The notes beneath the pieces were generated by a model. It searched no databases and had not been told where the DNA came from. It saw nothing but the letters and a program-made list of their open reading frames with translations. Position numbers and translations under genes: made by a program. Of a stretch of DNA of 64,000 bases, positions 55,832 to 59,592 are shown one piece after another (position 1 is the stretch's first letter; each line of letters starts with the position of its first letter). Source of the DNA: Candidatus Spyradenecus sp. (GTDB taxonomy: Bacteria > Verrucomicrobiota > Kiritimatiellia > RFP12 > DVOR01); assembly GCA_051884775.1 (NCBI GenBank), contig JBJEVY010000058.1:2655-66654 (forward strand). Direction: 5' to 3'.

Positions 55832-57373
55832 ATGGTGGAAGCCCCGTACCCGTGCGAGATCGCACTTGTTGATGGTCGGCGGTTACTCCGTTGCGGCTTG
55901 CAGAGCTATGTCGATTATCCTTTCCCGGCGCTGTTGCAATCGCTGAACGAGGAGATTGCCCCCGCCTCGCCGCTCTTTCCGTTCCTGACGATCTTGCCTG
56001 GCACGCCTGAAAAACTCCGTTACGCTCTCGCGCGCGCCGGTGTCGCCGAACATTCCTCTCTGCGCAATCGCGCCTTGCCGAGGGCGTGTCTGCGCCAACT
56101 CCAGGAGGCAATCAATCGCCTCCACGCCTGGGCGGAGGATCCGCAGGTACCGGGCGGTACGCAGGATTTCTGCCGCAATTTCGCATTGCCCGACCCTGTA
56201 CTCGACCCGGAGGCCTACCAACTCTCCCGTGGTCCAGGCGGCTGGCGGGTACATGTCCTCTGGGGTTATGAGAGCGATGAGGCGCCTGCCATCAAGCCCC
56301 TCTCCGCCCTCTCCGCCCATTGGGCGGATAGCGCCGATCGTGTCGCTTTGGCCGAGCGTTTCCGCAAGGCGCGGCCGCGGTTCGTCCTGCCGTGGCGAGC
56401 CTGCGTGCGCCGTCTGTTTGTGTGCCTGCTCATCCTTTTCCTCGGAAGCAGACTGTGGCATTATGCCTCGGAGTGCGTGGAGGGCATGGAGCGACTCCGC
56501 GCTTATCGGGCGAGCGCATTGGTGTGCCTGGAGGCTATGCAGCAGTCGCTCAATGAGACCCAGGCGGAGCTGGCTGCGGCGCAGTCCCGTTGCGAGGCTC
56601 AGCAACGAGATCTGGAGGCTGCGCACTCCCGACAACAGGAGGCCGAGGCACGCGTTGCGACCTTGCAGGGCGAACATACGGCCTTGCAACAGCAATGCAT
56701 AGGTCTGGAGCGAAATCTGGAGGCTGCGCGTTTCCAGCGGCAAGCGGCCGAGGCGCGCGCAACGACCTTGTTGAAAGATCAAGAGGCTATAAGAAACAAT
56801 GTCTCTGAACTGCAAGACAAACTTACCTTGGCGCAAACCGGCCAGCAAGATGCCGAGATGCGTGTCGTTATGTTGCAAGCCGAATGCGATTCGCTGCGTG
56901 AGGAGCTCTCGCAGATTAAATCTGGCCAAAGGAGTATGGTTAAGCAAGTTCGCGATGCGTTAGACAAATGTGAATCGTTACAACATAAATGCGATGTGCT
57001 ACAAGACGCGCTTACCTCTACGCAGTCTAGCCAGCAAGAAGCCGAGACGCAGGTGACCACCTTAAAGGGTGAGCTCAACGCATTGAAGACGCAATACGCC
57101 AAACAGGTGCGTCTCGGTAAGCTGTGGCACACAAAGGCAACGCAATTGGAGCAACAGAACAAACAACTCCAAGACCTCAAGGCGCGGCATCAAGCCCTGG
57201 AAGATAATCTGAAACAAGAACGGCAACAATCTGAACTCTACCGTCGGATTTGTGTAGGACTGATTGATACACTTCGACGTGCAGATCCTAATCTTCCAGA
57301 GGTGAAAAACTTGCAGGAAATCGATGCCTATCTCTCCAAACGAGATGAACGTTGGTGGAAGCTGTGGAAGTAG
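55832..57373 (+). CDS. Gene D: single-pass membrane protein with an N-terminal domain shared with gene E plus a 35-residue-repeat coiled coil
   Basis: 513 aa. A basic stretch then a TM segment (RFRKARPRFVLPWRACVRRLFVCLLILFLGSRLW). Repeats are LEAAHSRQQEAEARVATLQGE, LEAARFQRQAAEARATTLLKD, LTLAQTGQQDAEMRVVMLQAE and LTSTQSSQQEAETQVTTLKGE. The gap to gene C is 3 nt. Confidence 0.6.
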   Translation: MVEAPYPCEIALVDGRRLLRCGLQSYVDYPFPALLQSLNEEIAPASPLFPFLTILPGTPEKLRYALARAGVAEHSSLRNRALPRACLRQLQEAINRLHAWAEDPQVPGGTQDFCRNFALPDPVLDPEAYQLSRGPGGWRVHVLWGYESDEAPAIKPLSALSAHWADSADRVALAERFRKARPRFVLPWRACVRRLFVCLLILFLGSRLWHYASECVEGMERLRAYRASALVCLEAMQQSLNETQAELAAAQSRCEAQQRDLEAAHSRQQEAEARVATLQGEHTALQQQCIGLERNLEAARFQRQAAEARATTLLKDQEAIRNNVSELQDKLTLAQTGQQDAEMRVVMLQAECDSLREELSQIKSGQRSMVKQVRDALDKCESLQHKCDVLQDALTSTQSSQQEAETQVTTLKGELNALKTQYAKQVRLGKLWHTKATQLEQQNKQLQDLKARHQALEDNLKQERQQSELYRRICVGLIDTLRRADPNLPEVKNLQEIDAYLSKRDERWWKLWK

Positions 57374-57390
57374 CTGGAAGGAGCAACGAG

Positions 57391-59592
57391 ATGAGCGAGA
57401 TGACGGGATTGCGATTTGAGCTGGATGCGCAGGGTTATCAGGCGTTGCCGATTGCCCACGGGCAGGCGCATCTTTGTTGGGAGGCGCCCTACCAGAATAC
57501 CTTGTTGGAGTTGGCCGGGGAGATCTTTCCCCGGGCCGTCTATGCGCCCGAGAAGGAACCGAGTACTGTCTGTTTTTCGTATACCGACGAGGGCGGCGAG
57601 TGGATGCATGCTTCGCACGCTTCCAATGAAGAAGAACCGACACTTGAGGAGTTCCGCCGCGTCCAAGATTGCTTTGAGTATCTGTATTCGCTCACCGTTG
57701 ACCCGCGGATGCCGCGAAGCAAGCGTGACTTCCTGCGCAATTTGCGCTTGCCGGATCCACGCTTGACCCCTGAACTGTGGCGCGTGGTCAATGGTCGCCT
57801 TTTTATTCTGTGGGGGCTAGCCAAACGGGGCATGGACGGCACCTTCTCGCCCTACCTTGCCTCGCCCGAGGGGGGGCTCTGCGGGCTTCTGGGCATTTCG
57901 CCTGAAAGCGCCCAGAAGCCAGAGCAGGCGGTTTCGATTGCTTTGCCGCAGCCGCAGGTTCAAGCCATTTCGTCACAGGTCCAAGAGCCAGAGAGCTTGT
58001 TGCCGTGGTGGAAGAAGGTGCTTCATTTTCTGCTGGGGGCGATACTTTGTCTTCTTGGACTGATTTTATTGCTTTGGGTGCTTCGCAGTTGTACGGCCGA
58101 GGAACACGCTGTTCGCCGTAGTTTCCCGCCGCGAGCCCGGGGTCCCGAGATGTCATCGCCAACGATACCCGGGGGGCATGCCAAAGGGGACATTGGCAGC
58201 AGCGGAAGCGAGGAGGAGGAGGACTCAAGGTCGATTCCGGAACCGGGGCCCTTGGACGGAGAGAACGCTTCGGGCGGGCTGTCCTCTCCGCCGCCAGCGG
58301 CGCAACTCCGGCAAACTTTTCGGGTAGAGTTACTCTGTGAGCAGCCGGACCCAGGTGGACAGCTGTCACAGGTAAGCTTTCAAATGGTCCCTGAGGTGGC
58401 ATTGCCGGAGGGTGTGGAGGCACAGGTACGAGCCTGGTCGATTAACGGCCGCGTGGTTCCTGACTCAGAGAGCTGGTCGTTTACCCCCGAGAATGGGCTG
58501 CGATATGATCGCAACTACACGATCTCAGCCACAGTCCTAATCGATGGTGTGGTCCAATGGGTGGTGCCCTATCAGTGGAACCTAGCGGACGAGCCGACCT
58601 GGCAAATCGTCGAGGAGGGCGTCGAGCGCGATGGATGCAAGGTGCGCTATCGTCTGGTCTGTTGCAATGCCTCGACTGTCACGCCGAAGGTGCGCGCCTG
58701 GCAGGTGAGCTTCCGAGAGGCATCATCGGCTGCTACCGAGTTGAGCTTTGCTTGCGACCAATCGCCTTTGGAGGGCAACCGCCTTGCTGTCTCCTGGGAT
58801 ATTGGCACCTACAAGGGCGCCTATTTTCTGGAGCTGGCAGCCGACTTGCAGTACACCACGCTGCGTGGACACACAGCAACGCTCACGCACCGGGAATTGA
58901 TTCCTTTCGTCCATGCCTCTTCGGCTGAGGAACTCTCTCGTGCCAAGTACGAGGCGGTTATCGATAATGTCTACTTCTGCCTGGCCACCCTAACCGACGG
59001 TACGCTCTCCAATGGCACTGCTTTCGCCATTTCCAATCGGCGGTTGCTGACCAATTATCATGTTGCCGTCGGTAGTATGCCTGGGAGTTACGCTTCGCAG
59101 ACAGATTACACCGTGAGACCGGTTCTTGAACTTTCCAATGGCTCCGGGCTGACCTACCACGCTCGTGTGGTCGCCTCCGACCGTGGGCGCGACCTTGCCC
59201 TGCTTGAACTTTGCGACGCACAGGGGGGCGAAACCGATGCGCGTCTCCCCGGCTACCTCCCTCTCGCCACCTCTGAGGCCCTTGCTGGAATCTCGCCCGA
59301 GACCCCACGCCATGTCTTTGCCGTTGGGTATCCTCGAGGAACCGTTCGAATGGGCCCTCCTGCGCTCGCCGAGGGCAAAACCGAGCGAATCGAGCGCGTT
59401 CGGGAGGTCGAGACACTCTTCAGTTTTATCGGTATCAAACCTGGCTATAGCGGCGGACCTCTCGTCGATTGCGCCACCGGCACCATTCTCGGTATAAACC
59501 ATAGTGCCTTCGTTGAGAAAAGTCCCGTCCACAAAGGTGCAGACCTTGCAACCGCCGCCACCGAAGTCCGTTGTCTTCCCCGCGTACATTGA
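57391..59592 (+). CDS. Gene E: single-pass membrane protein with the shared N-terminal domain and a C-terminal trypsin-like serine protease
   Basis: Start moved to ATG 57391 (RBS ggaaggag at 57376-57383). TM is WWKKVLHFLLGAILCLLGLILLLWVL. The catalytic triad context is LLTNYHVAVG (His), RGRDLALLEL (Asp) and KPGYSGGPLVD (Ser). Confidence 0.7.
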   Translation: MSEMTGLRFELDAQGYQALPIAHGQAHLCWEAPYQNTLLELAGEIFPRAVYAPEKEPSTVCFSYTDEGGEWMHASHASNEEEPTLEEFRRVQDCFEYLYSLTVDPRMPRSKRDFLRNLRLPDPRLTPELWRVVNGRLFILWGLAKRGMDGTFSPYLASPEGGLCGLLGISPESAQKPEQAVSIALPQPQVQAISSQVQEPESLLPWWKKVLHFLLGAILCLLGLILLLWVLRSCTAEEHAVRRSFPPRARGPEMSSPTIPGGHAKGDIGSSGSEEEEDSRSIPEPGPLDGENASGGLSSPPPAAQLRQTFRVELLCEQPDPGGQLSQVSFQMVPEVALPEGVEAQVRAWSINGRVVPDSESWSFTPENGLRYDRNYTISATVLIDGVVQWVVPYQWNLADEPTWQIVEEGVERDGCKVRYRLVCCNASTVTPKVRAWQVSFREASSAATELSFACDQSPLEGNRLAVSWDIGTYKGAYFLELAADLQYTTLRGHTATLTHRELIPFVHASSAEELSRAKYEAVIDNVYFCLATLTDGTLSNGTAFAISNRRLLTNYHVAVGSMPGSYASQTDYTVRPVLELSNGSGLTYHARVVASDRGRDLALLELCDAQGGETDARLPGYLPLATSEALAGISPETPRHVFAVGYPRGTVRMGPPALAEGKTERIERVREVETLFSFIGIKPGYSGGPLVDCATGTILGINHSAFVEKSPVHKGADLATAATEVRCLPRVH

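Follow-up and report, generated by a model that had tools for sequence, protein, structure and literature searches.

Two predicted membrane proteins of a five-gene Srf operon from Candidatus Spyradenecus share a highly divergent, probably SrfA-type N-terminal domain

In the 64,000-nucleotide stretch of contig JBJEVY010000058.1 from Candidatus Spyradenecus sp. analysed here (the window), five same-strand genes, A-B-C-D-E, are tightly packed as one operon, with intergenic gaps of 3–21 nt. The last two, D and E, encode proteins with homologous N-termini, each followed by one transmembrane (TM) helix and then by very different C-terminal parts—a long coiled coil in D and a trypsin-like protease in E. 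Their common N-terminal domain (N-domain) is the subject of this report; it resembles the N-terminal domain (SrfA-N) of SrfA, a protein of the proteobacterial srfABC operon. The features of the two genes are as follows (positions are those of the window; residues of E are counted from its ATG; HMM, hidden Markov model; aa, amino acids):

55832–57373, + strand: gene D, 513 aa, with N-domain, TM helix and long coiled coil (translation; homologues P0006–P0008)
55832–56371, + strand: putative SrfA-N-like N-terminal domain of D, about residues 1–180 (the family HMM covers D 9–178)
56162–56272, + strand: signature motif of D, QDFCRNFALPDP...VLWGYE, residues 111–147 (BLASTP alignment to E)
56399–56455, + strand: TM helix of D, about residues 190–208, with an R/K-rich stretch and LPW ahead of it (Kyte-Doolittle)
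56474–57373, + strand: coiled coil of D, predicted to be periplasmic, with a conserved C-terminal tail (coiled-coil matches; homologues)
57391–59592, + strand: gene E, 733 aa from the ATG, with N-domain, TM helix, linker, beta-rich region and trypsin-like protease (translation; homologue P0010)
57391–57870, + strand: putative SrfA-N-like N-terminal domain of E, about residues 1–160 (family HMM, E-value 1e-43, model positions 4–163)
57724–57822, + strand: signature motif of E, RDFLRNLRLPDP...ILWGLA, residues 112–144 (BLASTP against D; family alignments)
58018–58083, + strand: TM helix of E, about residues 210–231, with LPWWKK ahead of it (Kyte-Doolittle window 2.98, strong)
59014–59496, + strand: trypsin-like serine protease domain of E, with His557, Asp601 and Ser687 (Pfam, NCBIfam)

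A preliminary description of this DNA had reported the two motif strings and proposed that D and E have paralogous N-termini, each with a single TM helix behind them. All of this was borne out: the strings lie at the positions listed, Kyte-Doolittle hydropathy finds one helix after the N-domain in either protein, and a BLASTP comparison of D(1–218) with E(1–245) was significant (37% identity over 59 residues, E-value 6e-11 as a single comparison). The likeness is not confined to the motif. Profile coverage is domain-wide, and a six-sequence alignment of D, E and close homologues is collinear from Met1 to the juxtamembrane LPW motif; D and E thus share one domain that spans the whole N-terminus, beyond the LPDP...LWG motif. 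The helix of D is weakly hydrophobic (Kyte-Doolittle window 1.76), that of its homologues P0007 and P0008 clearly so (2.07–2.16). Further downstream, residues 233–494 of D match Tropomyosin- and SMC-type coiled-coil models of Pfam and NCBIfam, and the C-terminal 100 residues are conserved among its homologues. The protease domain of E matches Pfam Trypsin_2 (PF13365; E-value 1.7e-17) and the MarP family (E-value 2.6e-7), and its triad of H557, D601 and S687 is invariant between E and P0010. The start of E most likely corresponds to the ATG at 57391 rather than the TTG at 57352, because the former is preceded by the Shine-Dalgarno sequence GGAAGGAG and P0010 begins MSEITGL; the family HMM match at residues 16–172 in TTG-start numbering accordingly reads as about 3–159 from the ATG.

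To see which other proteins carry this domain, a profile built from six N-termini was searched against 1.84 billion representative proteins. It retrieved 199 protein clusters at E-values ≤1e-3, 41 of them at ≤1e-10. The domain is always N-terminal (residues about 20–190) in carrier proteins of 134–1423 aa, and no Pfam or NCBIfam model matched the domain itself in the 149 members scanned. Exactly one TM segment is present in 138 of 153 members, at a median of 17 residues beyond the domain. What follows this segment differs widely: trypsin/HtrA-like (Trypsin_2) protease heads occur in 33 of the 149, and the other C-terminal heads include PKD, Big_5, Big_13, TonB_C, OmpA and BiPBP_C domains, an RbmA-like PamR domain, a Ca-tandemer adhesin domain and coiled coils. 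The C-terminus is a TonB C-terminal domain in two members and an OmpA peptidoglycan-binding domain in one (members P0089–P0157); with such heads, some anchors probably extend to the outer membrane or cell wall. Pattern scans of genome contigs and viral contigs gave no confirmed relatives, their sole match (contig L033) being spurious.

An alignment of 57 members has the signature F.R.FRLPDP..MPE.WR...RL.VLWG. P50, P120, P122, W144 and G145 are invariant, and some members have N, S or H in place of D121; this pattern of Pro, Trp and Gly looks structural, not catalytic. In a maximum-likelihood tree of the 57 N-domains (support given as pairs of values), D groups with members that lack a protease (97/89), whereas 11 of the 13 members of the sister clade, which contains E (96/87), carry one; the two clades are joined at 90/91. 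Since D and E sit in separate sister clades, their duplication is old and predates the spread of the cassette. A distant contig, L012, has one gene of each type after SrfC-SrfB, and the retention of both copies argues for non-redundant roles of D and E.

The preliminary description had further placed the N-domains in the cytoplasm and the coiled coil or protease outside, reasoning from a basic stretch ahead of each helix and the positive-inside rule. The basic stretch is found in D (7 K/R upstream, 3 downstream) but not in E (2 upstream, 5 downstream), which leaves the rule ambiguous for E alone and counts against the placement there. The placement itself is supported on other grounds: neither protein has a signal peptide, K/R residues are more numerous ahead of the TM segment in 85 members and behind it in 19, and the heads are exclusively of extracytoplasmic types. 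Together these support a predicted N-in/C-out orientation, with cytoplasmic N-domains and extracytoplasmic heads, for the whole family including E. An inverted arrangement, in which the N-domains would be periplasmic and the coiled coil and protease cytoplasmic, could appeal to the K/R excess after the helix of E. It conflicts, however, with N-terminal domains of 190–210 residues that lack a signal peptide, with the charge bias of the family and with heads—TonB_C, OmpA, PKD, Big and HtrA/MarP-type proteases—that all belong outside the cytoplasm, and we find it hardly credible.

The domain is linked in genomes to two genes that lie upstream of D in the window:

49255–51714, + strand: gene A, 819 aa, SrfC-like P-loop/dynamin-like NTPase, candidate cytoplasmic partner (Pfam PF10139 Virul_Fac)
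51731–54574, + strand: gene B, 947 aa, SrfB-family Hsp70/actin-fold protein, candidate cytoplasmic partner (Pfam PF07520 SrfB, E-value 2.2e-59)

The match of A to PF10139 (Virul_Fac/SrfC; E-value 2.1e-8) exceeds the model cut-off, and a hydropathy scan found no TM window in this protein. Used as a tblastn query, B retrieved annotated SrfB genes on plasmids. Residues 632–650 of B (window 53624–53680) form a strongly hydrophobic 19-residue window, MLRLCLLPLVYCILGAIAS (Kyte-Doolittle 1.99); rather than crossing the membrane, this stretch is probably a buried helix. By the Pfam matches, A and B are SrfC and SrfB, with the D/E domain in the position of SrfA, none of which had been recognised in the preliminary description.

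Near relatives of the operon (contigs L001–L003, with the D homologues P0006–P0008) keep the order A-B-C-D-E. More distant family members lie directly downstream of SrfB, namely P0012 (L012/L013; ~30% identical to D), P0040 (L014) and P0067 (L015/L016). Contig L012 repeats the arrangement SrfC-SrfB-x-(D-type)-(E-type), and its last two genes both carry the N-domain. In a survey of the phylum, the N-domain was found in 9 of 301 genomes. SrfB was present in eight of ten same-phylum genomes with a domain match, always on the strand of the domain gene and no more than ~3 kb upstream; of 17 genomes without the domain, none had SrfB. Among the exceptions, G067 has a domain match that is only a 49-residue fragment and probably spurious; G183 and G299 are taken up below. 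On L015 (6272–13936), a probable Planctomycetota contig, the SrfB-x-anchor genes adjoin a cluster of TerD, PRTase_2-TRSP, StiP-PELOTA_1, C-C_Bond_Lyase and vWA-TerF genes. We take this TerD-vWA-TerF type of gene set to be linked to stress or conflict responses.

We compared the family with canonical srf loci on plasmids of Rahnella, Cereibacter, Methylobacterium and Haematospirillum. Run on untrimmed, gap-rich alignments (-norealign), hhalign 3.3.0 returned a probability of ~99.5% for real, reversed and shuffled input alike; this value for the SrfA link was discarded as an artefact, and the results used here come from alignments trimmed to well-occupied columns (-M 100), with controls. Against enterobacterial SrfA-N alone the family scored 18.1 (P 0.039). 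With four alphaproteobacterial SrfA-N added the score was 26.6 (P 0.0012), a value reached by 0 of 200 shuffles, and with Haematospirillum also added (11 diverse SrfA-N) it was 30.2 (P 2.7e-4). The 30.2-score alignment comprises 88 collinear columns (53–149 against 55–148), and the PD and VLxxWG motifs coincide in it. The corresponding controls stayed lower: 120 column shuffles reached at most 17.1, 120 block shuffles at most 26.8, and the reversed profile 15.0. Moreover, sub-profiles of D-type, E-type and remaining members each aligned to SrfA-N in the same register (hhalign P 0.002–0.008). Given the trimmed profile alignment with its controls, together with the same domain length, TM distance and operon position, we consider it likely that the N-domain of D and E is homologous to SrfA-N, as a highly divergent branch of that lineage.

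SrfA-N is itself modular, being combined with different C-terminal parts in proteobacterial srf loci. A 592-aa Methylobacterium protein (L010:4027–5805; WP_273565013.1, pNMS14P1) joins SrfA-N (E-value 1.9e-5) to a trypsin-like protease. On the Cereibacter plasmid p.A (L008:3349–7209), one gene matches the C-terminal domain of SrfA only (model positions 295–437), SrfA-N is matched by at least two further genes, two of which flank a serine protease gene; canonical SrfA appears split and multiplied there. Relative to SrfA, the Pro-rich linker and the Cys-rich C-terminal domain (model positions about 295–438) are replaced by the coiled coil in D and by the protease in E.

The picture that we regard as likely is that D and E arose by an ancient duplication and are SrfA-type, bitopic proteins of the inner membrane, encoded in a five-gene Srf operon, with the shared domain as a docking or coupling module. 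Each would consist of a cytoplasmic domain of about 150–180 residues, one TM helix and a periplasmic module; in D this module is a coiled coil of ~300 residues, and in E it comprises a linker, a beta-rich region and a trypsin-like serine protease. Through the common domain, both anchors would dock to a cytoplasmic NTPase pair, SrfB (Hsp70-like) and SrfC (dynamin-like), perhaps with C as a cofactor. Nucleotide-driven changes in the cytoplasm could then affect where the periplasmic heads sit, how they cluster or how active they are, including the protease of E; the coiled coil of D would serve as a stalk or partner. That the N-domain physically docks to A or B is inferred, as is the direction of coupling, which might also run from periplasm to cytoplasm. 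The preliminary description had suggested that the domain is a common handle for a shared cytoplasmic partner, possibly A or B; this fits the tight linkage to SrfB/SrfC loci and the likely SrfA-N homology.

Several results weigh against homology to SrfA. The curated SrfA model, NF040486 (SrfA_fam), matched neither D nor E (E-value ≤0.1), nor anything in the whole genome (E-value ≤10) or in 300 genomes of the phylum, and at the domain loci of eight domain-carrying genomes it picked up only noise from Pro-rich linkers. In the other direction, the family HMM had no match at E-value ≤10 in the srf loci of Cereibacter, Rahnella and Methylobacterium, a SrfA-N HMM matched none of 153 family members, and tblastn with alphaproteobacterial SrfA-N against plasmids found the self-match only. 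The hhalign probability for the link is only 41%, and the Cys-rich C-terminal domain of SrfA is absent from D and E. One could hence read the N-domain as an independent, undescribed family, an SrfB/SrfC membrane adaptor that is analogous and not homologous to SrfA and has come to sit in its position. Such a reading accounts for the failure of NF040486 and HMMER ever to connect the two and for the lack of a Pfam or NCBIfam match among the scanned members. It does not sit well with a collinear alignment that keeps both signature motifs in register, with a score that lies above all 240 shuffled controls and rises as SrfA-N diversity is added, with a domain length, TM-helix distance and operon position that are those of SrfA, or with the existence of SrfA-N–protease fusions in true srf loci. 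We think it quite unlikely. Strict membership of D and E in NF040486 was rejected, since neither reaches its 150-bit cut-off; Rahnella SrfA, as a positive control, scored 557 bits.

Two other proposals concern what the domain does rather than where it comes from. Linkage to SrfB is not without gaps, which counts against the docking picture: G183, a genome 95% complete, encodes a protein with N-domain, TM helix and PKD domains (L031:9836–12595) but has no SrfB, and G299 has a second copy of the same makeup (L032:7649–10093) 157 kb from its srf locus, both of them among housekeeping genes. Because of these two orphans, the N-domain is not strictly dependent on SrfB. They would suit a scheme in which N-domains mainly self-associate, D with E as hetero- or homo-oligomers at the inner membrane face, so that coiled coil and protease are assembled into one periplasmic complex without direct contact to A or B; the retention of D-type and E-type genes as a pair in distant genomes suits it as well. 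Yet many loci have a single family member beside SrfB (e.g. L014, L015), for which reason pairing cannot be the general role, and the linkage to SrfB is far tighter than that to a second copy. This scheme strikes us as unlikely. Somewhat more room, though still on the doubtful side, is left for viewing the N-domain as a truncated, protein-kinase-like (pseudokinase) module that itself has a regulatory task—binding nucleotide, or a phosphorylated or unfolded client, for example—and not only a passive docking handle. An AlphaFold2 model of D 1–192 from the 57-sequence alignment (pLDDT 92.4, pTM 0.87) shows a mixed alpha/beta domain; it replaced a run on a shallow six-sequence alignment that was unusable (pLDDT 44). 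In Foldseek, the confident model had no match at E-value ≤1e-3 in the Protein Data Bank (PDB) or BFVD (best E-values 0.06 and 0.08, respectively), and its weak top matches (E-values 0.06–0.4, TM-scores 0.2–0.36) were mostly kinase folds in both of these independent libraries: the PDB matches include IRE1, HipA, PIM1 and KKT14, and those in BFVD are kinases of giant viruses and baculoviruses. We take this as a lead only. A PDB sequence search with the family profile gave nothing below an E-value of 0.038. Apart from the weakness of these matches, the N-domain is ~100 residues shorter than a kinase domain, and the invariant positions of the 57-member alignment include no conserved set of catalytic Lys, HRD-type Asp and DFG-type Asp, nor any conserved Lys, Asp or Asn set.

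Among the closest known systems is the proteobacterial srfABC operon with its SrfA (NF040486; the proteins of Rahnella victoriana, WP_232770795.1, and Haematospirillum, WP_066137095.1, are examples). Like SrfA, the D/E family has an N-domain of about 150 residues, a linker and a single TM helix, is encoded beside SrfB and SrfC, and follows the motif order F..P, W/F..G, helix, PD, VLxxWG within a collinear profile–profile alignment. Unlike SrfA, D and E escape NF040486 and lack the Pro-rich linker and Cys-rich C-terminal domain, and the gene order is SrfC-SrfB-C-D-E with two anchors instead of SrfA-SrfB-SrfC. Some srf loci of Alphaproteobacteria contain several SrfA-N genes (Methylobacterium pNMS14P1, WP_273565013.1; Cereibacter p.A, AXQ95973–AXQ95975). 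They resemble the D/E operon in having multiple paralogous anchors per locus and SrfA-N with varied heads, including a trypsin-like protease as in E. Their N-domains differ in that they match NF040486 (E-values 1e-5 to 1e-21), lie upstream of SrfB and are undetected by the D/E family HMM.

The C-terminal domain of E recalls membrane-anchored HtrA/MarP-type proteases, with its matches to Trypsin_2 and MarP-family models, its His/Asp/Ser triad and its predicted tether at the outer face of the inner membrane. It departs from these in lacking a PDZ domain and in having a cytoplasmic domain of ~200 residues that is linked to NTPase genes; MarP, for its part, spans the membrane with four TM helices and lacks a cytoplasmic domain that resembles SrfA. 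TonB-type energy transducers are comparable as work-alikes only: they are bitopic, oriented N-in, and couple an energy source at the cytoplasmic membrane to a periplasmic head, and two family members end in TonB_C. In TonB itself the cytoplasmic part is only a short tail, and ExbBD and the proton-motive force provide the drive instead of soluble NTPases; neither D nor E showed homology to TonB.

The D/E operon is thus best understood as a variant of the known, mechanistically obscure SrfABC system and not as a new kind of system, and the handle common to D, E and their family as an unannotated, very divergent SrfA-type N-domain. Our literature search found no mechanism given for SrfA, SrfB or SrfC, which are widespread ‘virulence factor’ genes. 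The present locus suggests that an SrfA-type membrane subunit can diverge beyond the curated SrfA model, duplicate and carry very different periplasmic heads, and it offers a testable layout for a vague ‘virulence operon’: a pair of cytoplasmic NTPases, a cytoplasmic handle common to the anchors, and periplasmic effectors that can be exchanged. With at least 199 protein clusters carrying the unannotated N-domain, the family merits a Pfam or NCBIfam entry, which would let ‘SrfA-less’ SrfBC operons be annotated correctly. More tentatively, the SrfA-N lineage might be a truncated, pseudokinase-like coupling domain through which SrfB and SrfC drive or gate interchangeable periplasmic heads across the inner membrane—a conjecture to which we give less than even weight. 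If it were true, the D/E operon would employ its protease and its long coiled coil as a pair, and ‘SrfABC’ would be a general NTP-powered trans-envelope machine with swappable outputs, not a toxin, perhaps for envelope surveillance or for inter-bacterial or phage conflict.

Between B and D lies the remaining gene of the operon:

54596–55828, + strand: gene C, 410 aa, coiled-coil protein without the shared domain (coiled-coil noise only in Pfam and NCBIfam)

The family HMM gave no match to C, so the shared N-domain is absent from it. Its last ~65 residues are conserved in L012:5663–6832, a gene between SrfB and the D-type gene (BLASTP E-value 7.8e-5), and a weak likeness to this tail is also seen in L014 (E-value 0.19); C may be a conserved fifth component.

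A known anti-phage defence system was considered for the operon and rejected: in PADLOC-DB 2.0, A and B match no defence model, D gives coiled-coil noise only and E a generic protease domain only. The neighbours of the operon include the housekeeping genes RsmH and PBP2, whose protein clusters carry the names Lentisphaeraceae and Candidatus Spyradenecus, and the host is therefore a diderm gut bacterium of the PVC group. In the genus survey the N-domain was found in 2 of 25 genomes, with two copies in each, and in 0 of 16 other genomes of the same order. The G+C content of the operon region (window 48000–60000) is 0.56–0.62, against ~0.65 for most of the other DNA in the window. This lower G+C, together with the presence in only two of the 25 genus genomes, indicates that the operon is probably an accessory, horizontally acquired cassette.

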